DNA from: a virus
Taxonomy: Duplodnaviria > Caudoviricetes
Length of the DNA: 33,248 nt
Virus record (IMG/VR): IMGVR_UViG_3300027838_000022
Span: 1-33,248 of that record
Reading direction: 5' to 3' (one strand)
In this document: one piece after another, positions 4,808-31,544 of the stretch
How the letters are laid out: each line of letters opens with the position of its first letter
Numbering within the stretch: position 1 is the first letter of the stretch
Notes under the pieces: model-generated
What the model was told of the DNA's origin: nothing
Database searches by the model: none
What the model saw: the letters and a program-made list of their open reading frames with translations, nothing else
Translations under genes and position numbers: made by a program

Positions 4808-5878
4808 CTATCCAAGACTAAGGCTGGATACTATTTCTCTTGCGGTATTTTCCCAAGAAAATTTTTCAGCGGTTTTTATTCCCTCTGTATTTATTAAATC
4901 TTTGCCTGACCTTTTTTGTTCGTATACGCTTCTCATATGATTTGATATGTCAGAAATTTGTTCATCATCAATTTTTGCCCATTTACCCTGACCTTTAAAC
5001 CATTTTCCGTCAAACGCATCTTCTGTGGAGTTGATGTCAACTAAGAGAGAGTTAGAATCGTTGCAAAATTCTGTGTGGGCGGAATAATTTGTGGCGACAA
5101 TCTGTTTCCCACATGACATCATTTCAAGAGCTTCTAAATTCCACCCCTCTGCACGACTAGGAAAAACACCGCAGTCAGACTGCGCCATGATATTATACAC
5201 CTCTTTTTGTGTTTGTTGTCTGGGAATTATTCTAATCTTGTTTCCCAGTTTAGAATTTTTATATAGGCTCTGCCACTCCCTATTTCCTTCTACGTCATAG
5301 AAAGGATTGTGGCACATCATCCACAGTTCTACGTTGTCATCTTCATTAAACGCTTGATTGAACGCTTCAACTAGTACGTCGTGCCCCTTTCTAATTTCCC
5401 ACTTTCCAACATTTAGAAAAATTGTTTCTGTTCGGTTTGAATCTGTTTTAGGAAATATATTCCGGTCTACCCCTAGAGGTATGACAGAAACTCTATAGTG
5501 ACCCTTTTCTAAAGCGTCAACAACTATTTTTTTAGCCCAAGATGAGCAAACAAAAATCTCATCTAGGCTTTTAAGATGGTGTGTTTCGTTGGGGGCAAAT
5601 CGGTCAAGCTCAAAAATAGGAAACCCTACCCTTGTTCCCCTTCCCACAAATTGACTCATATCGTGCTGATGCCAAATCCTCACACATGGAGCAGAGAAGT
5701 TAGGCAAGCCCGCCTTAGATACACAGTCTCGCAGTACAGCCGCATCCTCTGCGGAGGCTTCAGGGCTTCCGATGGGCCACAGGGCAACATTTGCAATTTT
5801 AGATAGGTGTTTCGTCACATTAGCCCCTACTACACCGTATCCTAAGCTGTTTATTGGTGCTATTATATTTATGTCCAT
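4808..5878 (-). CDS. Glycosyltransferase family 4 (GT-B)
   Basis: FLNVGKWEIRKG and DCGVFPSRAEGWNLEALEMMSCG (EX7E motif). Confidence 0.9.
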   Translation of the reverse strand: MDINIIAPINSLGYGVVGANVTKHLSKIANVALWPIGSPEASAEDAAVLRDCVSKAGLPNFSAPCVRIWHQHDMSQFVGRGTRVGFPIFELDRFAPNETHHLKSLDEIFVCSSWAKKIVVDALEKGHYRVSVIPLGVDRNIFPKTDSNRTETIFLNVGKWEIRKGHDVLVEAFNQAFNEDDNVELWMMCHNPFYDVEGNREWQSLYKNSKLGNKIRIIPRQQTQKEVYNIMAQSDCGVFPSRAEGWNLEALEMMSCGKQIVATNYSAHTEFCNDSNSLLVDINSTEDAFDGKWFKGQGKWAKIDDEQISDISNHMRSVYEQKRSGKDLINTEGIKTAEKFSWENTAREIVSSLSLG

Positions 5879-6799
5879 TCAGCCCCCAATCCTTTGTGCC
5901 CAATAAGAAATGCTTGCCTTCTCATAATTTTTATTTATATCTTTTGTCTTTTCCACAATTTCCATCAGAATTTCTTCTGTGATATAATAGAGAGAGTTTA
6001 TTCTTATTACAGGCAAGCCTTCAAAATAAGAGGTGGTCTTGCTTTCCAATACTATTGGGGTACAGCCCAAGTATAAAGCCTCCCATATTCGATGACAGTC
6101 CACCCCATTCCCCTGTGGACAAAGAACAAATTGATGTTTAGCCATCTCTCTTAAGTATTCGTCTTTAGGAAGAGTGGGCTGCTCTTGTACGGTTGCCCAA
6201 GGAAAGTTTGAATTTGCAAAATGGCGTTTAAGATGAACTCTTTCGTTTGTATAGGTTTGCCAATTTACATAAAGAAGTTTATCTTTTTTGATTTCTTCAT
6301 TTTTGACTTGTGATATTAGTTCGGTATCGCCTTCCCCTACGCCCATAGGAATCCCCACAATTCTGTCATGACTTAGCATCGGATTTACTAAATACCACTT
6401 TTCAATATTAGAAGGAATTTCATTAAAAGTTGAAAGTGTAAAGGAATAACACTTTACTGAATAAGTGTCGTGAGAATCGCACTGTTCTTTATCACACCTA
6501 GCCGGAATAAATAAATCCGTATATCCTGCTTGTTCTATCTCGTTAGAAACAAACGGAATCCATTTCATCATATCCATGCCAACAGGATGCTCTTCTTGTT
6601 TTGCTAGCCCAAAATCGGTATAACCACTTACTACCGTATATTTTCTATCAGTTTGCTTGCATTTCTCAAAAAAGTCTTTTATGTGTTCAATGTTAATATA
6701 AACCAGACCGCCTTCTGGCAATGTGTCACCTGTGCGAAACTCCGTTTCACAAAACACATCTCTCCAAAATTTACAGTCTAACATTTCATTTGAATTCAT
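5879..6799 (-). CDS. Exostosin/GT47-like glycosyltransferase
   Basis: C-terminal FVLCPQGNGVDCHRIWEALYLGCTPIV motif. Confidence 0.8.
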   Translation of the reverse strand: MNSNEMLDCKFWRDVFCETEFRTGDTLPEGGLVYINIEHIKDFFEKCKQTDRKYTVVSGYTDFGLAKQEEHPVGMDMMKWIPFVSNEIEQAGYTDLFIPARCDKEQCDSHDTYSVKCYSFTLSTFNEIPSNIEKWYLVNPMLSHDRIVGIPMGVGEGDTELISQVKNEEIKKDKLLYVNWQTYTNERVHLKRHFANSNFPWATVQEQPTLPKDEYLREMAKHQFVLCPQGNGVDCHRIWEALYLGCTPIVLESKTTSYFEGLPVIRINSLYYITEEILMEIVEKTKDINKNYEKASISYWAQRIGG

Positions 6800-7243: not shown

Positions 7244-7573
7244 TTAAACCTGAAAACTACTCCCACACCCACAGCTTTTTGTGGCATTAGGATTATTGAA
7301 AACAAAACCACGCTTAGAAATATCAGTGTAATAATCTAACGTAGTTCCTTCTAAATACAACGCGCTTTTATTATCTACAATAACATCTACACCATGTTGA
7401 TGATATAACGCATCCTTTTCCTCATCGTAGTCATTGCCTACAGTTAAGTTATATTGGAAACCGGAGCATCCACCACCCTCCACAGCAATCCTTAGATATT
7501 TTTCTTCGGTATCTTTAAGGTATTGCTTAGCCTCTGCTCCTGCGGCTTCCGTTAATTTAATTGTTGATGGCAT
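7244..7573 (-). CDS. Fe-S cluster A-type carrier (IscA/HesB/ErpA family)
   Basis: LRIAVEGGGCSGFQY and C-terminal NPNATKSCGCGSSF. Confidence 0.95.
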   Translation of the reverse strand: MPSTIKLTEAAGAEAKQYLKDTEEKYLRIAVEGGGCSGFQYNLTVGNDYDEEKDALYHQHGVDVIVDNKSALYLEGTTLDYYTDISKRGFVFNNPNATKSCGCGSSFQV

Positions 7574-7575
7574 TA

Positions 7576-8190
7576 TTATTTTCCGTATAGTTTTCTAATT
7601 CTTGAAATGTCGTCTTTTTGTGGCGTTACTGTGTTGGGATTATAGTAAGGATACATCAACGCCGATTTGTCTGCGGAATGCCTCAGACCTAAAAGGTGTC
7701 CTATTTCGTGAGCAGCCACGGCCCGCAAAACAAAACTATTGTTCTCTTTCTTTAGTGTCCACTTTTCGGCAACATCAAATTTTGACAGGAGAAGCCCACT
7801 AAACTTTTTGCTTCCGGGTAGTTCTGCCCAAGCTAAAACGTCTCCGGGTTCACCAAAGCCTTCTGATGGTTTATTTCCAACACTAAAAACAATGTCGCAA
7901 TCAAAAATATTATCAACCTGATTAAAAGTCATGCCACAAATGTCAGACCAAGATTTAAAAGCTAGCTTAAACTGTAAATCCCAGCTTGACAGGGCCAATT
8001 CTTCTATGTCTCTATTTAAAAAGAAATACTTTAAATGTTTTTTGTCCCATTTATTTGCATTTTTTCGTTGCAGATGTTCTACATTTCCACATCTGAACGA
8101 GCAACCGCTCTCTGATAATTCCTCTTGCCCATAAGCCTCAAGACCGTAAAAACCAGACAAGCTGGTGTATAAGAATTGCCTACGTTGCAT
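7576..8190 (-). CDS. Matrixin (M10A) zinc metalloprotease with a Tat-like leader
   Basis: HEIGHLLGLRHS (HExxHxxGxxH), ALMYP Met-turn, N-terminal QRRQFL, RCG cysteine-switch-like motif. Confidence 0.9.
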   Translation of the reverse strand: MQRRQFLYTSLSGFYGLEAYGQEELSESGCSFRCGNVEHLQRKNANKWDKKHLKYFFLNRDIEELALSSWDLQFKLAFKSWSDICGMTFNQVDNIFDCDIVFSVGNKPSEGFGEPGDVLAWAELPGSKKFSGLLLSKFDVAEKWTLKKENNSFVLRAVAAHEIGHLLGLRHSADKSALMYPYYNPNTVTPQKDDISRIRKLYGK

Positions 8191-8254: not shown

Positions 8255-9508
8255 TTACAAAACCGATTCCGTATCTGTTTCTATAAAATATCTAGGGCGA
8301 CCAGACATGTCAAGTCTTTGTGTATGCTGGTCTATCCCAAAATGCTTAAGCAAGGTGGCAGTAACATTTTGTGGATTAATTGGATTTGTTTTTGGTTCTT
8401 CTGCATTGCTGGTAGACTCACCAATAAATCGACCAGTCGGAAAGTCTCCACCAGCCAGCATAAGCGGAGACAGCCTTGGCCAATGGTCACGGCCAGCATT
8501 ACCATTTATTTTATATGTGCGGCCAAACTCTCCGGTTACTACTAGCAGGACATCTTTATTCATGCCTTTGGCATATATATCATTAATAAATGCTGATAAA
8601 GCCTTGTCAATAGGTGGAACCTTGCCCTTGAGGGCTTGTGAAATGTTGCCATGCATGTCCCATCCACCATACTGAACGGTGACAAATTTTGTGCCAGCTT
8701 CTACAAGTCTACGAGCTAAAAGAAGCTGTTCCCCTATGCCCTTGCCATAGTTGGCAAACATTGCAGGGGGTTCCTTTTTAATGTCAAAAGCTTCTGCCAC
8801 TTTACCTAAAAGCATGCTGTATGATTGGCTGCGAAGGTCTGACCATGCGTCAGCACCACTGTCAACGCCCTCTCTGAGCCTGTCCAAGCCACTCAAAAGC
8901 TCCTGATTACCCAAGAACCTCTCTGGTGTGATTTTTAATTGGAGGTTCTTAACCCCCTGTCCGCTAGACTCATATGGCTTTGTCTGACTTCCGAGCCACG
9001 CGCCTTCATCAAAGCTAATCCCATTAACTCTGACATAGGTGGGCATGCCACTAATAGGATGATTAGAGCCATAGGCTGACGACACGATAGAACCGTAAGA
9101 AGGGTGGTATGCAGGAGATTGCGGCGTGTTATCTGTACTGTTATGTCCAGTCATTACCCAGTGGGTTGCTGTGCGATGACTAGCATTGCCATGCGCAAAT
9201 GACCGAACCACAGATATCTTGTCACCTACGCCTGCCAGCCCAGTCCAGTCGCCCCCAATGAGATAATCACCATTGGTCATTATGCTGCCATTCACGGCTC
9301 GAACATTATCTGGAGCGTCTGGCTTAGGGTCAAATGTTTCTACTTGAGTAGCACCGCCACCAAGCCACACCCAAACTACAGACTTGTTGTTGGGAATAAG
9401 GCAGGTCGCGTCATCTGCATAAAGGTCAGAAAGACCTATGGCAGAAAGCCCTGCTCCAATACTACCAATCCTCATCAAGTCTCTGCGATTAAAACGAAGG
9501 TCAAGCAT
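8255..9508 (-). CDS. DUF1501 family protein (Tat signal; Planctomycetota-enriched)
   Basis: NRRDLMRIG, WLGGG..QVETFDPKP, LLARRLVEAGTKFV, GWDMH, GEFGRT, GRDHW, P.P..V.AT....GI. Confidence 0.92.
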   Translation of the reverse strand: MLDLRFNRRDLMRIGSIGAGLSAIGLSDLYADDATCLIPNNKSVVWVWLGGGATQVETFDPKPDAPDNVRAVNGSIMTNGDYLIGGDWTGLAGVGDKISVVRSFAHGNASHRTATHWVMTGHNSTDNTPQSPAYHPSYGSIVSSAYGSNHPISGMPTYVRVNGISFDEGAWLGSQTKPYESSGQGVKNLQLKITPERFLGNQELLSGLDRLREGVDSGADAWSDLRSQSYSMLLGKVAEAFDIKKEPPAMFANYGKGIGEQLLLARRLVEAGTKFVTVQYGGWDMHGNISQALKGKVPPIDKALSAFINDIYAKGMNKDVLLVVTGEFGRTYKINGNAGRDHWPRLSPLMLAGGDFPTGRFIGESTSNAEEPKTNPINPQNVTATLLKHFGIDQHTQRLDMSGRPRYFIETDTESVL

Positions 9509-9549
9509 TTGTGGACTCCCCCATCCTTAATTTTCGTAATAGTATATAT

Positions 9550-9559
9550 TATTATACAC
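9550..9559 (-). promoter_or_regulatory. GTGTATAATA motif, candidate -35-less promoter for the DUF1501 operon
   Basis: Same 10-mer as at 2862-2871. Confidence 0.45.
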
Positions 9560-9571
9560 TAAAAATAAGGC

Positions 9572-10018
9572 TTATTTGCTAAATGCTGCTTGAAGAAGCT
9601 CTTCTGAGCTATCGAAGGTCGAGTTTGCGCAAAGTTCAGAAACTATCTTTTTGGCTTCTGTTTTTGTGTAGCCCATCTTAACAAGGGCGACTACAACCTC
9701 TTGAATAATTTCGTCACTTGTGGTGTTCTGAGGTTGAGGGGTGGGTTCAGGTTCAGGAGGGTGGGCGGGACTAGGCTTGTTCGATACCCCCACTAAGAAT
9801 TGCTTTAGCAGGTTGTTTAATTCTCTTAGCTCTTGTCCAGATTCAATTTGTTCTGGCTCTATTTCAATAGTTGGTTTACTAATTCTTGACATGAGCAACT
9901 CATGTTGATGCCTTCTTTCTTGTATTCGTTTATTTTTCATCAAATTAACGATAAGAAATATAACAACTAGAATAAAAAACCCCGCAGAAAGCAGGGTTGG
10001 GTCGAAGTCAGAATTCAA
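9572..10018 (-). CDS. Membrane-anchored protein with a C-terminal RuvA domain III-like module
   Basis: N-terminal TM (AGFFILVVIFLIVNLM), Pro-rich linker, C-terminal EVVVALVKMGYTKTEAKKIV...SSEELLQAAF. Confidence 0.7.
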   Translation of the reverse strand: MNSDFDPTLLSAGFFILVVIFLIVNLMKNKRIQERRHQHELLMSRISKPTIEIEPEQIESGQELRELNNLLKQFLVGVSNKPSPAHPPEPEPTPQPQNTTSDEIIQEVVVALVKMGYTKTEAKKIVSELCANSTFDSSEELLQAAFSK

Positions 10019-10029
10019 GACTGGCCCCC

Positions 10030-10899
10030 TTAGTTTGTTTCGGGATTAAAGTATTCGTACTCACCATTATCCTGAAAGCTATCTTCGTCGTCCTCTACCT
10101 CTTGAGCTTGCTCGTTCGTCATCATCATATCCATAAACTGAGCAAACTCTTCGGTAGTCCATTCACCCCCATCAGACTTATGCATTACGCTCTTAAGTGG
10201 CCCTGCGTAGTCAGCCACTACTTCATAGCGACAGCATCGAACCTTCTGGCACTCGGAGTCTACGGGTACTGAGACTACATCTCTTGGGTTAACCTTAACG
10301 ATAACCACTAGGTCTTCGTTATGCTCACACCGATAACCCTCAACATACTCAATTGCCCCAACATGCAAACCATCGCTGCATCCCATATTACAATTGTCAT
10401 CTACTTTTCGTCGCTGCATTTCTACAATGCTTCCAATTTTATTATCAATTGCTCCCGTCCACTTGTCAGTATAGTCTTTTCTAAGAGCCTTATAAGACAA
10501 GAAGCAACCATCCTCCGTAATGGGCAGGTTTTTATTCTCAAGAAAAGTATACAGTTCTTCCACGGCTCTATTGGAGGGGTTACTGAGAATATTTTCTAAG
10601 AACTTAAGCATTGGCTGAAACGGGAAACCATTTCGCATCATTGTCATAATGCGTGAGGTTAATGTATTATGAATCACTTCCTCTTGGTAGGACAAGACGC
10701 CATCCTTAATATCAATATCCCCGTCGCTATAGTTCAGAATGGATGCGGGTATATCAATAAGAGCCTTAATGCTCTCTGGGTCATTGTTAACCAAACACTC
10801 TTTAATAGGCATGTAGTTTGGGTGGTCATGCCCAATACTAAAGCTTTGATTATCAATAACAATCGTCATTGTTCCGTTGCCGCTGATGATATAATTCAT
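10030..10899 (-). CDS. rIIB: rIIB-like protein
   Basis: NPS.RAVEELYTFL, ITEDGCFLSYK, CSDGLHVG, VKVNPRDVVSVP, RCCRYEVV. Start moved to ATG 10899, just after the rIIA stop, with a GAGGAG SD. Confidence 0.92.
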   Translation of the reverse strand: MNYIISGNGTMTIVIDNQSFSIGHDHPNYMPIKECLVNNDPESIKALIDIPASILNYSDGDIDIKDGVLSYQEEVIHNTLTSRIMTMMRNGFPFQPMLKFLENILSNPSNRAVEELYTFLENKNLPITEDGCFLSYKALRKDYTDKWTGAIDNKIGSIVEMQRRKVDDNCNMGCSDGLHVGAIEYVEGYRCEHNEDLVVIVKVNPRDVVSVPVDSECQKVRCCRYEVVADYAGPLKSVMHKSDGGEWTTEEFAQFMDMMMTNEQAQEVEDDEDSFQDNGEYEYFNPETN

Positions 10900-10900
10900 C

Positions 10901-13018
10901 CTACTTCTCCTCAAAAACAGGGGTGGTGTTCTCGATAAGGTCAACATACTCCGAAATTTTTCCAGCATCTTCTTCGTCTATGGCACGATGTGTAGACCAG
11001 TTAAAAGTAAACAGGTCAAGCATGGGATACCTTTTCTCTATTCTTTCTTCTAATCCATCTAGGGGAATATAGCCTTCGTCGTGTTCTATTCTAAACAGGC
11101 TATAGTTAGCTAAGTTCTTGGCCGCTTCGTATGCTTCTCGGTTTTCTTCTAGCGACTTATGCCTAGACACATATTGCTTGATAAGGTTTTCGGATTTAGT
11201 GTGTTTGACAATCTTCTCTAGTGACTTGAAGCCTAGCAAAGCTCCAGACGCCGCCCTTATATCCTTAATCCGATTGGCCCATTTCTTTTCCACCATGCAG
11301 GACTCAAGAATTTTGTTCACAAAGTCCTCAAGCCTGACCCATTTGCTGCTTACCTTCTGAAACTTTTTTTGCTTTAAAAGCGTAGGCTTAAACCCATAGA
11401 TAGGGGTTTTTGTTTCGTGGCCCATCGTCTTTAGCTTATCAAGCATAGCTGATATGCGACTGGGGTGTTCATCATGTCCAAACTTGTCTCTATAATTGTA
11501 TCTGAAAATTTCTGCATAAATTCCACCAGCTTCCAAGTCAACTTCTACGTCAGACCAGTGGTTATTGGTATCCCACCCTCCGGTCGGCTTATAGATACAT
11601 GCCTTAGAGCGAGTATAGCCTCCCCCACCAGAATAACCAGAGAGGGGTTTTTCAAGGGTAGATGCGTTTTTAAGTACAGATGGGAGCATGCCCATCTTTT
11701 CAAGGAAGCTCTTAATTGCTTCGTCGCTACCCCTTACAAGGTAAATTTCCTTTGCGCTTTTGCTTTCAATGTAGGTTTTACACCTGCTGATTGCACCCCT
11801 GCCTAAGTCATCAAGATAAAACAGGATGTCTTTCTTGGAGGGGATTGCAGCTACATCCTTTTCATTCTGCACAGTATCTCTCCACAATCCTTTATGGAAT
11901 CTCTGACAGTCTAAGCCTGTGATTTCCCAAACTGCAATACTGGTGTTGTTCTTTTCAAACATCTTTTTGCCGCGCCACATAACATCGTTAGTGTCAAACA
12001 CTCCATTAAGACTGTTTAGCATTTTGTCTGAACTCTTTAAATCACTATATAAGAGTCTGGCATCCCACAGGGTTTCACATGCTTCAAGTTTAGACTCCAG
12101 TATTTCACCTATTTCACCAATAATCCTATTAAGCTTCTTTAGGATATTTTTCTTGGTATACTCATTGTATGATAGAGATTCTCTTGATGGAGTTACGCTT
12201 ATCTCTCCAATATCAAAATGAATATCTATGTTTCCACGTAGAATATGCTGTATTGATTTTTCTTCGCTATCAATAATATTAGCACTAATTGGATAGCATA
12301 CGCTTCCCATGATAGCACAAGCATCCCAACTGTAATCGCGCCTATCGTTACCATCGTGAATAGCCCAATCATCGCCTTCTATCAGGTAGTTGGGACTGCT
12401 AATCTCAATTTGTTTTCCAGTAATATTGGGATTTACTGCAAAGAAAGTATAAAGCTGTTTTGCTTCTTCCTCAAAGTCAAAGTTATCATCTGAGTTAACA
12501 GGAAAGCTAACACGAAGGCCATTCCGTTCCTGTGTTTCCTTACTGGACAGTAGGGCAAATACAGGCTCTTCTTTCTCATTTTTATACGCACTATAAAGCT
12601 TGTGTTCGCCATTATAAAATGATTCCACACTAAAGCTATCATTATAGGCAAACGGAGACTTACTGCCCAGACCCATGCAGCCAACGGATTCATTGGAGCC
12701 TGTTCGACTTGAGCGAAAATAAGTCGTATACAAGCTCATGCAATCTTCATGAGATAAGCCTGTGCCGAAATCCCTTATAGAGAAAAAGGGTTCCATCTCG
12801 GTAGGCAAATGTACACTGAAAGGTTCAGTGGGATTACCATTGTCCACCTGAGCGTCGAGAGCATTGGTAGATAGCTCTCGGACAACTGCACGGACTTTAT
12901 TAGCATACAGCCCGTCAGATAGAATAGAGAATGCTTTTGCCGTTGCTTCAATAGTGTACTGAGACTCTTCAAAGTCTCTGCTACGCTCAATCTTATTTTC
13001 AGAGTGGGTCAACTTCAT
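10901..13018 (-). CDS. rIIA: rIIA-like protein (N-terminal GHKL ATPase domain)
   Basis: AFSILSDGLY.NK.RAVVRELSTNALDA, IRDFGTGLS, GLGSKSPFAY, TPSRESLSY; adjacent to rIIB. Confidence 0.92.
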   Translation of the reverse strand: MKLTHSENKIERSRDFEESQYTIEATAKAFSILSDGLYANKVRAVVRELSTNALDAQVDNGNPTEPFSVHLPTEMEPFFSIRDFGTGLSHEDCMSLYTTYFRSSRTGSNESVGCMGLGSKSPFAYNDSFSVESFYNGEHKLYSAYKNEKEEPVFALLSSKETQERNGLRVSFPVNSDDNFDFEEEAKQLYTFFAVNPNITGKQIEISSPNYLIEGDDWAIHDGNDRRDYSWDACAIMGSVCYPISANIIDSEEKSIQHILRGNIDIHFDIGEISVTPSRESLSYNEYTKKNILKKLNRIIGEIGEILESKLEACETLWDARLLYSDLKSSDKMLNSLNGVFDTNDVMWRGKKMFEKNNTSIAVWEITGLDCQRFHKGLWRDTVQNEKDVAAIPSKKDILFYLDDLGRGAISRCKTYIESKSAKEIYLVRGSDEAIKSFLEKMGMLPSVLKNASTLEKPLSGYSGGGGYTRSKACIYKPTGGWDTNNHWSDVEVDLEAGGIYAEIFRYNYRDKFGHDEHPSRISAMLDKLKTMGHETKTPIYGFKPTLLKQKKFQKVSSKWVRLEDFVNKILESCMVEKKWANRIKDIRAASGALLGFKSLEKIVKHTKSENLIKQYVSRHKSLEENREAYEAAKNLANYSLFRIEHDEGYIPLDGLEERIEKRYPMLDLFTFNWSTHRAIDEEDAGKISEYVDLIENTTPVFEEK

Positions 13019-13102: not shown

Positions 13103-14110
13103 TTATTTTTGTAAATGGTGCGTATTTATCCATTGTATTGTTTTAACATCAGACCGCATGAATAAACTATTAGTTCTAATTTGCCCAGCGGTTCTTTTTA
13201 CGCCCTTGAATATTGTTCCATCCGTAATGCCTGTTGCCGCAAATATGCTTGGGCCACATACCAGCCTACCCATAGGCATTATGTCTCCTACTGGAACCCA
13301 TTTTTCATCATTGGCAGAAAAGAATATGTCTTCTCTACCAGAAGCATTGCTTTCATATATTTGGGCTTCCATTCCCCCACCTAAACATTGTATGGCAGAA
13401 GCAGAAATAACTGCTTCGGGGGAGCCTCCTATACCATACACAAAATCAACATCGCTTGTCGGTAGGCAGCTAGCAAGAGCGCCAACTATGTCGCAATCTC
13501 TGATAAGCTTTACTCTTACTTTAAGGTCTCTAAGTTTTTGTATGACCTTAGAGTGTCGTGGTCTATCTAGAACGCACACCATTAATTCTGGAATTAGCTT
13601 TCCAGTTGCTAAAGAGGCGAGTCTAAGATTTTCTTCTAGCGGGTTTCTTAAAGAAAGCTCAACCTTATCTTTAATCTTCTTTCCGTATGCTATCCTGTTC
13701 ATATAGTAATATCCAGTATAGAACATGGAAGATGGACAGCCTACAGATATGACTGACATGGCCTCTGGCCCAGAGGTAACGGTCTGAGTTGTTCCTTCTA
13801 TCGGGTCAACAGAAATATCGAGCCATGTTGGTTCTCTGGTTCCATATCGAAGCCTGTATGTGGAACCGTTGGCCTCCCAAGTCTTTGCTTTTTTACCCAC
13901 GGTTTCGCCTTTGAACAAGCCAAAGGACTCATCCTTTTCCCCCTCCCCCATAACAACTCTACCGGCAATCTCTATCTCTGTGTTGAGCTTCTCCCGCATC
14001 GCTTCTGTGGCGGCTTTATCCGCAAGCTCTTTTTCTCCAGAGCCTATCCATTCTGATGCGGCAATGGCGGCAGCTTCTGTTGCTTCTACAATATCCGAGC
14101 TTATTTTCAT
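13103..14110 (-). CDS. glpX: Class II fructose-1,6-bisphosphatase
   Basis: ATEAAAIAA, GEGEKDE, VDPIEGT, LDRPRH, GIGGSPEAV, FAATGITDG. Confidence 0.92.
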   Translation of the reverse strand: MKISSDIVEATEAAAIAASEWIGSGEKELADKAATEAMREKLNTEIEIAGRVVMGEGEKDESFGLFKGETVGKKAKTWEANGSTYRLRYGTREPTWLDISVDPIEGTTQTVTSGPEAMSVISVGCPSSMFYTGYYYMNRIAYGKKIKDKVELSLRNPLEENLRLASLATGKLIPELMVCVLDRPRHSKVIQKLRDLKVRVKLIRDCDIVGALASCLPTSDVDFVYGIGGSPEAVISASAIQCLGGGMEAQIYESNASGREDIFFSANDEKWVPVGDIMPMGRLVCGPSIFAATGITDGTIFKGVKRTAGQIRTNSLFMRSDVKTIQWINTHHLQK

Positions 14111-14196
14111 AACACCCCTTTTATTGTAGGCGTACTTTCATCGGCAGCTAATATATCTTTACCATCAGATATAAGTTTCGAGATTGTTTTTTGCAT
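14107..14196 (-). pseudogene. 29-aa N-terminal remnant of class I fructose-bisphosphate aldolase
   Basis: Manual translation MQKTISKLISDGKDILAADESTPTIKGVL*, matching the GKGILAADESTxTI signature; its stop overlaps the glpX start (ATGA). Confidence 0.75.
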
Positions 14197-14204
14197 GCTG
14201 CCGT

Positions 14205-14411
14205 TTAGCTGCGTAGCGGCCAAAATACATGACCGCACAGAACCCCTATTATAAAAGGCACAATAGGATGCTGCCTAGAAATTGTATATATAGAAAAACT
14301 AAGTGTTGCGTTTAAGTCCTTAGCATAAAACATTACTATGCTATCCCAGACAAAGACAACACAAAACGTAAGTATAATTAAAAACTTGGTTACGTTTAAA
14401 AAATCAATCAT
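14205..14411 (-). CDS. Small two-TM membrane protein
   Basis: Two hydrophobic segments; C-terminal G.L.GH.FWP. Confidence 0.6.
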   Translation of the reverse strand: MIDFLNVTKFLIILTFCVVFVWDSIVMFYAKDLNATLSFSIYTISRQHPIVPFIIGVLCGHVFWPLRS

Positions 14412-15505
14412 TTTACCCTGTTCACTTTTATGAATGTTGTTCTTTTGCTAAAATCCTTCAGTGTCTTTGCTCCGACATAAGCACAAGCACTTCTTATTCC
14501 TCCTAAAATTTGATGTACGGTTTCCTTCACTGGCCCCTTATAAGGAACCCTTTTAGCTTCCCCTTCTGTTGCTCTATATTCTGCGACCCCGCCACTATGT
14601 TTATTCATAGCGGCTGAGCTTGACATTCCATAAAACTTTAGCGACTTCTTTTTTTGTCGTAATTTGCCGTCTTGGTCAACTTCAATCTTCCCTGCGACGA
14701 ATGGCTTGTCTTTTGGTTCTAACCATTGAAGGTCATTTTCCCATTCCCACTCCCCTTCACATTCATCGGTTCCAGCTAGCATGCCACCTAACATGACAAA
14801 ATCTGAGCCTGCCCCAAACGCTTTAACTACATCCCCCGGAGTTTTGCACCCCCCATCTGCACAAATATGAGCGTTAAGACCATGTGCCGCATCTGCACAT
14901 TCTATTACGGCAGAAAGCTGTGGGTATCCTACGCCAGCTATTAATCTAGTAGTACACACACTTCCCGGCCCAATACCTATTTTAACTATATCTGCCCCAC
15001 CTTGCAAGATTAATTCTTGAACTATTTCTGGAGAGCATACATTTCCAACCATAAGTATAGCTTTAGGGAATTGCGCTCTTATTTCGGCAACCCTATTTAC
15101 AAAGTAGTCTGTGTACCCATTAGCTACATCTATACATATATTATTAATGGAAACCTTGCTTGATATCTGATTTAATTTTTCTCTATCTTTCTTTCCTGTT
15201 CCCAGCGTGTAAAAAAAATAGTGGGAGCCAGCTCTTTGTTTTATGAACTCGCACAGGTTATCTATTGAATAATGTTTATGGAGACATGTTCCCATGTTAT
15301 GGTTAGCAAGACTGTCTGCCATAGCAAAAGTGCCAGTAGTATCCATGTTTGCGGCGAGTATGGGTACTCCTTGCCACTCTTGATTAGAGTTTCTTGACTT
15401 AAATGTTCTGATAATGTCCACTTCTTTTCTGCTCGCCGTTGCAGACCTTTGTGGTCTAATTAGAACATCTTGAAAATCTAATTTTATGTCTTCTATAATT
15501 CTCAT
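14408..15505 (-). CDS. guaC: GMP reductase
   Basis: MRIIEDIKLDFQDVLIRP, AANMDT, IDVANGY, KIGIGPGSVCTTR, GYPQLSAV, FYGMSS. Confidence 0.95.
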   Translation of the reverse strand: MRIIEDIKLDFQDVLIRPQRSATASRKEVDIIRTFKSRNSNQEWQGVPILAANMDTTGTFAMADSLANHNMGTCLHKHYSIDNLCEFIKQRAGSHYFFYTLGTGKKDREKLNQISSKVSINNICIDVANGYTDYFVNRVAEIRAQFPKAILMVGNVCSPEIVQELILQGGADIVKIGIGPGSVCTTRLIAGVGYPQLSAVIECADAAHGLNAHICADGGCKTPGDVVKAFGAGSDFVMLGGMLAGTDECEGEWEWENDLQWLEPKDKPFVAGKIEVDQDGKLRQKKKSLKFYGMSSSAAMNKHSGGVAEYRATEGEAKRVPYKGPVKETVHQILGGIRSACAYVGAKTLKDFSKRTTFIKVNRVK

Positions 15506-15667: not shown

Positions 15668-16471
15668 TTATCTCCTTACCTCACTATTTTTCTTCCATAC
15701 TCCGGTCATTATAGAAGGGTCTACGTCAAGCTCAATAGACCTATTAATTAAGGCGTTTAAATCCTTGGGAAAGCATGTTCCACCAAAGCCCCTCTTTCCG
15801 TCTGGGCCGGGAACGCTCCAATGGGAGTCTCCAAGCCTCTTGTCAATGGTCGCAAGCTGAACAACTTTGTTATAAGGAATATCAAGCTTTTGGCATATCT
15901 GACTTAACTCATTGGCTAATCCCACTTTTACGGCAAGATGTACATTAGTGGTATACTTCACCATTTCAGCCACGGTCGAAGATGTTTCCCATATAGGAAT
16001 CTTAGGATATGCTTTCTGATAACATTGACTTACGCTATCTAAAATATCATAGCTGCCACCAATAATTATTCTGTCCTGATTTTTGAAGTCTTCAACTGCA
16101 TTAGCCTCAGTTAAAAATTCAGGATTAAAACAAATACTACAGTGTACATATTTTTCAGATAATGCCTGCGTGGTTCCCGGCACAACCGTCGATTTAATAG
16201 CAATAGTTGTCGCTACATCTTGTAGCTTTGCTTCTTCGTTGATTAATTCTACAACGCTCTCTACTATTGAAGTGTCACAACTACCACTTGGAAGCATCGG
16301 GCTTGGAACACAAATAAAGATAGGCCCATCGACCTTTTGCACTACCTCTTTTATACTGTCGCAATTGCTTTCCCCGTTAATGTCGTAACAAAGAACATCA
16401 AAAGCGTGGAGCATGCCCTCTTTAACGGCTGTGCCAACTACTCCACATCCTATTAGCCCTATCGTTTTCAC
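15668..16471 (-). CDS. UDP-glucose/GDP-mannose dehydrogenase family (lacks the C-terminal domain)
   Basis: GCGVVG, KSTVVPG, NPEFL and catalytic GFGGTCFPKD; only 267 aa. Confidence 0.88.
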   Translation of the reverse strand: MKTIGLIGCGVVGTAVKEGMLHAFDVLCYDINGESNCDSIKEVVQKVDGPIFICVPSPMLPSGSCDTSIVESVVELINEEAKLQDVATTIAIKSTVVPGTTQALSEKYVHCSICFNPEFLTEANAVEDFKNQDRIIIGGSYDILDSVSQCYQKAYPKIPIWETSSTVAEMVKYTTNVHLAVKVGLANELSQICQKLDIPYNKVVQLATIDKRLGDSHWSVPGPDGKRGFGGTCFPKDLNALINRSIELDVDPSIMTGVWKKNSEVRR

Positions 16472-17668: not shown

Positions 17669-17866
17669 CTATTTCTCCATCGAGCTATCCATAGCCTTTT
17701 TTAGGGGCGTGAGTCTTTCTCTATTATCATGCTGCATTTTGTCTAAAATTTTCTGAACCTTAGTTTCTTCCCTAGTCTCTTTTCTTTTTGCTAATATCTT
17801 TTTTCGCGCAAACTTTTCTTTATCTTTTCGCTTCTTAAATTTTTTCTTGTTTTGATAATCTGACAT
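17669..17866 (-). CDS. Lys/Arg-rich hypothetical protein
   Basis: Start reassigned to MSDYQ, downstream of tRNA-Leu. Confidence 0.55.
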   Translation of the reverse strand: MSDYQNKKKFKKRKDKEKFARKKILAKRKETREETKVQKILDKMQHDNRERLTPLKKAMDSSMEK

Positions 17867-17898
17867 TTCTTCACCGTGTATAAGACTATATTTATAAA

Positions 17899-17983
17899 TA
17901 GTGCTGGAGGGACTCGAACCCTCACGCCCCTTACAGGCACAGGATTTTAAGTCCTGAGTGTCTGCCAATTCCACCACAGCACT
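17899..17983 (-). tRNA. tRNA-Leu(UAA), long variable arm, no CCA
   Basis: AGTGCTG...GGAATTGGCAGAC...CAGGA-CTTAAAA-TCCTG...GAGGG-TTCGAGT-CCCTC-CAGCACT-A. Confidence 0.95.
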
Positions 17984-25628: not shown

Positions 25629-25856
25629 CTATCCACAATCACTACGAGGGGTTCTGTGTTTGTTAGTGGCTTCTGTCATCCACTCAATCATGTCTTTGTT
25701 CATATTTGCCCACGATTCCACATCGGGGTGCATACGGAGCCATCTCTGGCCGTCAATATCTATTACGTCGTCACCATTACCAGACTTCTCTACTAATTCA
25801 TCGTATTTTTCTGCCTTTTCTTTATTATTCATCCTTGTCCTCCAAGATTGAAACAA
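25629..25856 (-). CDS. Hypothetical protein (likely start MNNKEK)
   Basis: GGAGG SD before MNNKE. Confidence 0.5.
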   Translation of the reverse strand: MFQSWRTRMNNKEKAEKYDELVEKSGNGDDVIDIDGQRWLRMHPDVESWANMNKDMIEWMTEATNKHRTPRSDCG

Positions 25857-26154
25857 AAACTACCCTTGAGCAAGAAGGACATCTTCCCATGCTTCCTATT
25901 AATGTGCAAGGCAGTTTCATTTTATGGTCACACTTAGGACAAGAAAATAAAAACTTACTATCTGTCTTGGGTTTATAATAGAACCTGCCATCTTCTCCTA
26001 TTAACTGCTCTATTATGTCTAGTTTTACCATAACTTCAAGCTGGGCAGATACCGCATCCATTAATTCTTCTTCACTCATCTTGTCCCAGCCATGTTTTTT
26101 CATCATTCTTTTTATTTCTTCGTCTAGCTCATCTTCCCCTTCGTTATCATACAT
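25825..26154 (-). CDS. Protein with a C-terminal zinc ribbon
   Basis: FLFSCPKC...GRCPSC. Confidence 0.6.
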   Translation of the reverse strand: MYDNEGEDELDEEIKRMMKKHGWDKMSEEELMDAVSAQLEVMVKLDIIEQLIGEDGRFYYKPKTDSKFLFSCPKCDHKMKLPCTLIGSMGRCPSCSRVVFVSILEDKDE

Positions 26155-30432: not shown

Positions 30433-30619
30433 TTTCGCCCTCCTTGTACTTTGCTATTGCTTCTTTAAGGTCGTTAATCGCATCTTCTAGCCTACGCACG
30501 ACAAAATGCGCGGCTTCTCTTTCTTTTTTCAAGCTGGCTTCGTGTTTTTCTTCATTTTCTGCGATTTCGCTCTTTAGATTGGCAATTATATTACCATAAA
30601 TTACTGTTAAGTCACTCAT
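30389..30619 (-). CDS. Coiled-coil hypothetical protein
   Basis: ORF track; overlaps the ruvB stop. Confidence 0.55.
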   Translation of the reverse strand: MSDLTVIYGNIIANLKSEIAENEEKHEASLKKEREAAHFVVRRLEDAINDLKEAIAKYKEGENGREAGYNEQKRNG

Positions 30620-31544
30620 TATCTTTTCCTTCTGCCGCCCCGACTTTTTTACGATTAAGTACTCTGCCGCGAGGCGTCTTCTTTATTATACCATTTCGTA
30701 GCAGCCACGGCTCAATTATATCCTCAATCGTTGCCTTATCAATCCCTGTGGTTGCAGATATTGTACTAACTCCTAGAGGAATATCGCTGTTATTCAAGAC
30801 TCGTAAGTATTGTCGGTCAACATCCGTTAAACCACTGGTGTTTACGCCCTTAATTTTCATGGCCGCTTTTACATCTTCCATAGACAACTGGCCGAGATGT
30901 TTAGCAATCTTATAGTCTCGCAGCCACTCCAATGTTGAATTTACTATTCGGGGCGTGCCTTTAGAAATTTTTGCTGCTAAATTGATAGCATCATCAGACA
31001 GCTTAATCTCTAGTTTACCCATATTGGCTTCGGCAATAGCTCGCAAGTCTTTATCGTTATACAATTTTAGCGTGTGTTTATTCTTGAATCTATCAATGAA
31101 CGGTTTAGCCAGCAATCCAATCTGAGTTGTTGCTCCGATTAAAGTAAAGCTAGGTATCGAAACGCTTATGGTTTTTTCCTCACTAACAGCCATATCTATC
31201 TTAAAATCTTCCATGACTGGATACAGAAATTCCTCCACGATTTTAGTCATGCGATGAATTTCGTCTATAAACAGAATAGAATCCTTCTCAATCTGCATTA
31301 GGTAAGCGACAATGGATTTAATATTTCTTAGGTTAGCACCATTAGCGGTCTGTAGTGAACACCCCATCTCGTTTGCTATTGCATTAGCTAATGTAGTTTT
31401 ACCTGTTCCGGGTGGCCCATAGAACAGCATGTGACCCAAGCAAGTGTTTCTTGTTTTGGCACTATCGACACTTATCTGGAGAGCCTCAAGAACTGATGAC
31501 TGTCCTAAGATATCATCAAACTTTGTTGGTCTAAGTATATTCAC
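30612..31544 (-). CDS. ruvB: Holliday junction branch-migration ATPase RuvB
   Basis: LRP..FD..LGQ, GPPGTGKTT, LFIDEIHR, EEFLYPVMED, FTLIGATT, DRF, GTPR, EPWL...TPRGR. Confidence 0.95.
   Translation of the reverse strand: MNILRPTKFDDILGQSSVLEALQISVDSAKTRNTCLGHMLFYGPPGTGKTTLANAIANEMGCSLQTANGANLRNIKSIVAYLMQIEKDSILFIDEIHRMTKIVEEFLYPVMEDFKIDMAVSEEKTISVSIPSFTLIGATTQIGLLAKPFIDRFKNKHTLKLYNDKDLRAIAEANMGKLEIKLSDDAINLAAKISKGTPRIVNSTLEWLRDYKIAKHLGQLSMEDVKAAMKIKGVNTSGLTDVDRQYLRVLNNSDIPLGVSTISATTGIDKATIEDIIEPWLLRNGIIKKTPRGRVLNRKKVGAAEGKDNE

Follow-up and report, generated by a model that had tools for sequence, protein, structure and literature searches.

A phage protein joining a predicted membrane helix to RuvA domain III: a candidate membrane adaptor for RuvB

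Introduction

RuvB is known as a motor whose work depends on RuvA, which keeps it in place at a Holliday junction. What, then, might a phage gain from RuvA domain III (D3) when this domain stands behind a predicted membrane helix and lacks the junction-binding part of RuvA? The question is raised by a gene in a DNA stretch of 33,248 nucleotides from a virus of the Caudoviricetes (IMG/VR record IMGVR_UViG_3300027838_000022), here called the window at its full length. In PMC9477746, D3 is described as docking on RuvB at helix 3 and at the presensor-1 hairpin, and as both tether and nucleotide-exchange factor; other sources on the D3–RuvB contact are PMC10071043, PMC2265524 and bioRxiv 10.1101/2022.09.22.509074. 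A survey of jumbo phages reports phage RuvC that is not coupled to a RuvB (PMC7824862). A full-text literature search listed no paper on a phage protein in which D3 follows a membrane helix or a zinc ribbon; the first-pass annotation of the window had likewise known of no system like the membrane form. What is added here is a marine family of membrane-D3 proteins, which complete genomes show to occur without ruvB and without rII, together with the swapping of its alleles.

The gene and its product

The features of the locus and of the distant ruvB gene are collected in Table 1. The ribosome-site-like run (GGGGG) lies 6 nt upstream of the TTG start, and the plus strand is closed across the gene. 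A spurious ORF or artefact was considered and rejected, because in ten aligned alleles (120-176 aa) the hydrophobic segment and D3 remain joined in a single reading frame. The window allele was found again in an independent run (X4), and the runs containing the window stretch are marine or seawater metagenomes.

Table 1. Positions of the features discussed, numbered from the first letter of the window
Feature	Position	Strand	Basis or remark
Membrane anchor + linker + RuvA domain III (membrane-D3) gene	9572-10018	minus	148 aa, TTG start
Predicted single transmembrane helix, residues 9-27	9938..9994	minus	hydropathy; family-wide positive-inside rule
Charged helix + Pro-rich linker, residues 28-100	9719..9937	minus	length highly variable among alleles
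RuvA domain III (RuvA_C), residues 101-148	9575..9718	minus	Pfam, TIGR00084, Foldseek, VIA
G-rich ribosome-binding-site-like run directly past rIIB stop	10025..10029	minus	sequence; similar run in L001, L006, L007
Terminator-like hairpin + U-run inside codons 7-14	9972..9998 (hairpin + U-run 9998-9978)	minus	pairing kept in most of 5 alleles
Segment replaced by divergent allele in L001, L002, L008	9670..10026		flanks 99.3-99.99% identical to window
rIIB	10030..10968	minus	PHROG 609, E 1e-72
rIIA	10901..13018	minus	PHROG 612, E 4e-126
Intact phage-clade ruvB; hydrophobic D3-binding hairpin residues kept; no adjoining D3 gene	30612..31544	minus	both NCBIfam RuvB equivalog cut-offs passed

The mean Kyte-Doolittle value of the 19-mer formed by residues 9-27 is 2.76, a measure of hydropathy only. 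An AF2 model built from 77 family rows begins with a long helix, continues in a linker of low confidence and ends in a three-helix domain (residues 101-148, pLDDT above 95). The hydrophobic N-terminal helix and the Pro-rich linker of the first-pass annotation are confirmed. Judged by hydropathy and charge, the protein is likely single-pass, N-out/C-in, with D3 in the cytoplasm; the N-terminal helix may also be a cleaved signal-anchor.

The C-terminal domain is RuvA domain III

Residues 105-146 match Pfam RuvA_C (PF07499) with 29.5 bits (cut-off 24, E 1.1e-6); among seven other close homologs one exceeds this cut-off, the remaining six scoring 15-22 bits. The match to the RuvA profile TIGR00084 is confined to positions 152-201 (29.5 bits against a cut-off of 85), and by this profile the OB and HhH junction-binding domains are missing from the window protein, whose N-terminus is a hydrophobic helix. 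At the structural level, Foldseek ranks 1-10 are all RuvA with probabilities of 0.9-1.0 (7pbl_G: rmsd 1.0 Å over 47 columns, probability 1.00, E 0.098); no match reaches E 0.001, which is expected for 47 residues. D3 superposes on 7pbl_G and 7pbp_G with an rmsd of 1.0 Å over 45-47 residues. By VIA, the five top rows are RuvA with Z of 6.2-7.7 (next row 5.2), values under 8 being modest for a small helical domain, and 5/5 sequence matches of the allele profile to the PDB are RuvA.

A UBA domain was tried as the other candidate and rejected: the window protein has no UBA match in Pfam, and UBA entries in Foldseek come at rank 23 and below with probabilities of at most 0.18. UBA and other RuvA-C-like bundles have an [ML]G[FY]-type loop, as D3 does. 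The C-terminal domain is RuvA D3 rather than UBA, as the first-pass annotation had proposed together with the loss of the OB and HhH domains.

The E. coli RuvA positions L167, L170, Y172 and L199, which we take to be RuvB-binding, align with L112, M115, Y117 and F146 of the window protein, and these are hydrophobic in 100, 97, 74 and 100% of the 77 family rows; the LG[FY] motif is also structural, and therefore its conservation is no proof of an interface. In most window-clade alleles Tyr117 is replaced by His. The family has, in addition, conserved features of its own beyond RuvA, namely K119 (69/77), C130 (46/77) and an aromatic residue at 135 (73/77).

Position after rIIB and transcription

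The gene had been annotated as starting 11 nt after rIIB, apparently under the rII promoter. The gap is 11 nt, the neighbours are rIIB and rIIA by PHROGs, and the position thus stands; the terminator-like hairpin inside codons 7-14 is a caveat to the promoter. If this hairpin terminates, transcription of the membrane-D3 gene would reach only part of the rII level. The hairpin comes out as the optimal fold for the window, L006 and L009 and not for L001 or L007, its covariation is weak, and sites with a terminator-like hairpin and U-run number 5 in the region against 4.1 by chance. A terminator lies 3' of the membrane-D3 gene in L074; in L075 a terminator is present and the gene is missing. Contigs from RNA libraries (X7, X16) run from rIIB into the other allele by 99 and 52 letters, such contigs being no proof of transcription, and X15 and X16 have no cover over 9540-10025, which is uninformative on expression.

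Besides the window clade, 22 further membrane-D3 loci were compared. The gene directly follows rIIB in the window clade, in L074 and in 5/22 of the further loci, and ssb lies within about 1 kb upstream of it in 9/22. In L075 rIIB is present with no membrane-D3 gene after it, and in L080 (9601-10066, minus strand) a frameshift, from a pseudogene or an assembly error, separates the hydrophobic part from D3; because of these two loci the gene is considered accessory. In G020 the membrane-D3 gene is present and rIIB is missing.

Several other features lie beyond the gene. Between it and a DUF1501 gene, a promoter-like stretch containing TATAAT (9540-9560, minus strand) is kept in L006 and L007; it does not appear in the promoter scan. 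The genes at 8255-9508, 7576-8190 and 7244-7573 code for the DUF1501 protein, a matrixin-like M10 peptidase and an Fe-S carrier. The DUF1501 protein and the M10 peptidase have twin-arginine-like N-termini, and relatives carry up to three copies of DUF1501 (L089).

The wider viral family

When 1.84 billion representatives were searched with a profile, 88 clusters matched. An N-terminal helix with a Kyte-Doolittle value of at least 1.6 is present in 65 of them and a weaker one in 6; 15 have none, many of these looking truncated, and the last 2 correspond to RuvA or a piece of it. K/R residues are in excess on the C side of the helix in 62 of the 65 helix-bearing clusters, which suggests an N-out/C-in topology with D3 in the cytoplasm. 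Clusters of the ESM Atlas have 55-176 members, 91-100% of them viral and partly with RuvA_C, at scores under 0.9 that make them leads only. A third possible targeting module is seen in the 371-aa protein P0050, where a family-type D3 stands at the end, behind a large unknown domain.

A GT4 glycosyltransferase gene is common to 31/31 records (window, further loci and ruvB-bearing relatives), and because of this the records are assigned to a single phage family with genomes of about 150 kb. In the GT4 tree the membrane-D3 carriers lie to the same side of a branch with support 89/87 (not starred). Among the cultured phages of INPHARED, tblastn with the window protein gave no match, and RuvB matches are at most 41% identical among the best 30 of 34. 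A scan of prokaryote genomes with RuvB gave 5 short unrelated AAA matches only. A planctomycete host is inferred from DUF1501, which we take as a pointer to such hosts, and from two structure matches in the Atlas that fall short of the score threshold. Elsewhere in the window, 13103-15505, 15668-16471 and 4808-6799 hold a GlpX fructose-bisphosphatase, an IMPDH/GMP reductase-like protein, an ORF that by eye resembles a nucleotide-sugar dehydrogenase, and two glycosyltransferases; the start (17900-17977, minus strand) of the ORF at 17669-17977 resembles a translated tRNA gene.

Independence from ruvB and the zinc-ribbon sister family

The intact ruvB of the window, noted in the first pass as lacking an adjacent ruvA, is confirmed by its equivalog scores, and no D3 gene stands beside it. 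It lies 20.6 kb from the membrane-D3 gene, which is not the ruvA–ruvB(–ruvC) context of a full-length RuvA, and the 33-kb window holds no second D3 or zinc-ribbon-D3 gene. The 109-aa ORF at 25825-26154 (minus strand) ends in a CxxC...CxxC zinc ribbon; it was considered as a lost zinc-ribbon half and rejected, having no homology to the zinc-ribbon-D3 family described below.

Searches for ruvB in genomes with a membrane-D3 gene gave no match to the window RuvB in 24/24 carrier records (control 5/5) and none to PF05496 in the 22 carriers outside the window clade (controls 4/4); most of these records are fragments, and 6/22 hold at least 21 kb upstream of the gene, so that the closest relatives carry no weight in either direction. 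Three carriers without ruvB are near-complete: G020 and G029 (100%, with terminal repeats) and G028 (94%). G028 and G029 have weak AAA matches, and the one scanned (G029) is RecA; in the five records tested for RuvA_N and RuvC neither was found. The D3 of these near-complete genomes falls under the Pfam cut-off (14.7 and 18.4 bits, and no match for G020) and may be drifting. Because complete carriers lack ruvB, and G020 lacks rIIB too, the membrane-D3 protein does not depend on a phage RuvB or on rII. The first-pass annotation had taken the protein for a dedicated tether of the phage RuvB within the rII module and had named beforehand homologs independent of ruvB as the observation against it; such homologs do occur, and the proposal is not supported in that form.

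In the opposite direction, a viral scan with a RuvB alignment, covering 26/64 parts of the set, gave at least 24 loci of the RuvB clade of the window. Directly or two genes upstream of ruvB, 17/24 of them, several being near-copies, carry a gene for a zinc ribbon followed by D3, without OB or HhH (L003:3048-3455, L010:333-692, L012:1449-1817 and 14 more loci). The other seven have no zinc-ribbon-D3 gene, and one of these, the complete G004, has ruvB alone and no D3. The RuvB closest to that of the window, from L010 (61%), has the zinc-ribbon form as its neighbour. No membrane-D3 gene was found in any of the ruvB-bearing records searched, and the window is the only record with both genes among those examined; both D3 forms occur together in none of the records searched whole, a set that excludes L010, L017, L027 and L074. 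A second D3 in G002 (E 1.2e-4) was rejected as a membrane-D3, since it reaches 14.4 bits and has no hydrophobic helix. Just downstream of ruvB in L003 (5804-7124), L011, L016, L023 and L025, a small membrane protein is followed by an actin-like gene, which in L003 is Pfam Volactin (PF25216, E 7e-65).

The best PDB match of the zinc-ribbon-D3 family is RuvA D3 (E 1.5e-5), and the window D3 aligns with this family with an hhalign probability of 94.8 (E 5e-8). The C-terminal HMM of the zinc-ribbon family matches the window protein at 29.4 bits, against 9.5 bits for a full RuvA of bacterial type. Because the window D3 groups in this way with the family adjoining ruvB, D3 appears in these phages as a partner of RuvB whose N-terminal module can be exchanged. 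The bacterial RuvA_C cut-off is passed by D3 in 13/24 membrane-form against 1/7 zinc-ribbon records, rows that are not independent.

Allele exchange

The swapped segment reaches from just past the rIIB stop (10026) to 9670, inside D3. In L001, L002 and L008 the replacing allele is of 120 aa and has 41% amino-acid identity; L001 has 1 mismatch to the window in 9,987 upstream bases. Save for one-base and nine-base gaps, this segment is the sole divergent place in about 20 kb of phages that are 99.9% identical. Two other runs carry the same junction. Loose ends occur at 10026, and contigs of X4 break at 9669, as they would at a bubble. Among 5 alleles D3 has a pN/pS of 0.38 and the first 27 codons one of 0.84; for rIIB it is 0.10 in one pair (pN 0.026, pS 0.258). 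We infer that allele swapping in such a background is typical of conflict loci.

Predicted binding to RuvB

The window RuvB is hydrophobic at three hairpin positions matching those of the bacterial-type RuvB of L032. In a complex prediction of residues 96-148 with residues 1-236 of the window RuvB, the score is 0.56 against 0.02 for the best control, above a mark that is reached by 116/157 solved complexes and 2/215 mismatched pairs, and in the range (0.60 or under) where the mark is reached by 18/157 solved complexes and by both passing mismatches. Contacts agree by at least 97% between runs, and the pLDDT of the partners is at least 85. The docking of D3 on the window RuvB is thus weakly predicted, and the pass may reflect memory of solved complexes (1IXS, 7PBL); the check with the phage RuvB that had been proposed in the first pass goes this far.

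Membrane adaptor, decoy or another partner

In the reading preferred here, with a probability of about 40%, the protein would be a membrane adaptor likely recruiting RuvB, by default that of the host. The cytoplasmic D3 of this predicted single-pass protein would grip the RuvB motor at the presensor-1 hairpin and stimulate it as in RuvAB, helping rather than blocking it, and RuvB held at the membrane would serve phage DNA replication or recombination. The many relatives without a ruvB gene would use host RuvB, and in the window phage its own RuvB may be an additional client. Since the adaptor is kept after loss of the motor, use of the host's motor is the simplest explanation. Also in its favour are the kinship of the window D3 with the zinc-ribbon family adjoining ruvB, the hydrophobic residues of the putative RuvB face, the constraint on D3, and the placement of the gene behind rIIB or within ssb operons. 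Points against recruitment are that nearly unconstrained N-terminal codons and a free linker length are unlike a force-bearing machine, that the gene is accessory, and that D3 falls under the Pfam cut-off in the three near-complete genomes without ruvB. Action on the host RuvB had been a secondary option of the first-pass annotation, and it fits better than the phage tether; the computed results do not separate recruitment from sequestration. The main rival is precisely sequestration, in which D3 at the membrane would act as a decoy, titrating host RuvB and denying RuvAB(C) access to branched phage DNA. This is rather unlikely in our estimate, even if it would account for the independence from phage ruvB and rII, for an anchor and linker that are nearly unconstrained next to a conserved D3, for the allele swapping in a nearly identical background, and for the more frequent passing of the bacterial RuvA_C cut-off by the membrane form than by the zinc-ribbon form, in rows that are not independent. 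It is less easily reconciled with the intact RuvB of the window phage, which has a D3-type hairpin, with the zinc-ribbon sister that is operonic with ruvB and points to cooperation, and with the hairpin inside the gene, which suggests low expression.

A D3-descended bundle might alternatively have been repurposed for another partner sited at the membrane, such as an rII protein, SSB or a host defence protein. We consider this improbable: the retention of D3 without phage RuvB, there under the Pfam cut-off, the conserved features proper to the family and the His that replaces Tyr117 would agree with it, but the best sequence and fold matches are still RuvA only, the putative RuvB face stays hydrophobic, and G020 has no rIIB. 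Very doubtful is the first-pass proposal of a membrane tether reserved for the RuvB that the phage itself encodes and acting with rIIA/rIIB, given that none of the 24 carriers has ruvB (3 of them being at least 94% complete), that G020 also lacks rIIB, that the nearest relative of the window RuvB goes with the zinc-ribbon form, and that no ruvB-bearing record searched has a membrane-D3 gene. On its side are the presence of both genes in the window, the position directly after rIIB in part of the loci, the weak predicted binding to the window RuvB, and a description of T2 RIIB as an anchor of the replisome to the membrane (PMC13001434).

Recruitment to the membrane, the preferred reading, could be extended to a wider scheme. 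In a large family of aquatic phages D3 would be a plug-in adaptor with exchangeable targeting modules, a zinc ribbon or a membrane helix; the membrane form would let the phage drop ruvB and hijack host RuvB as a membrane-anchored dsDNA motor, and the anchor half would be swapped between co-occurring strains under host conflict. As a whole this scheme is unlikely. A natural and widespread grip on RuvB at the membrane would show that phages re-aim or block the repair motor of their host: if RuvAB is blocked, the protein would be a natural inhibitor of bacterial recombination repair, and if RuvB is recruited, it would represent a novel mode of membrane anchoring for DNA processing. The protein is small and directly testable in E. 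coli.

Comparison with known systems

With bacterial RuvA (PF07499; PDB 1IXS, 7PBL-7PBT, 7X7P; PMC9477746) the window protein has in common the sequence and fold of D3 and a flexible linker to an anchoring module. The window protein differs in lacking OB/HhH, in having a predicted membrane helix as anchor, in being encoded by a phage, and in that membrane-D3 genomes are usually without ruvB, the N-terminus of ruvA or ruvC. UBA and other RuvA-C-like bundles have the small three-helix fold in common with D3, although UBA entries rank far below RuvA. Regarding T4-type rIIA/rIIB, there are gene neighbours in common, and membrane association of RIIB has been reported (PMC13001434); however, the link is positional and restricted to part of the membrane-D3 family, G020 and L075 breaking the pairing. 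Finally, the phage zinc-ribbon-D3 proteins (L003, L010-L013 and others) are of similar size and from the same phage family, with a homologous D3. In these proteins a zinc ribbon replaces the membrane helix and, unlike the membrane form, the gene stands beside ruvB in 17/17 loci.
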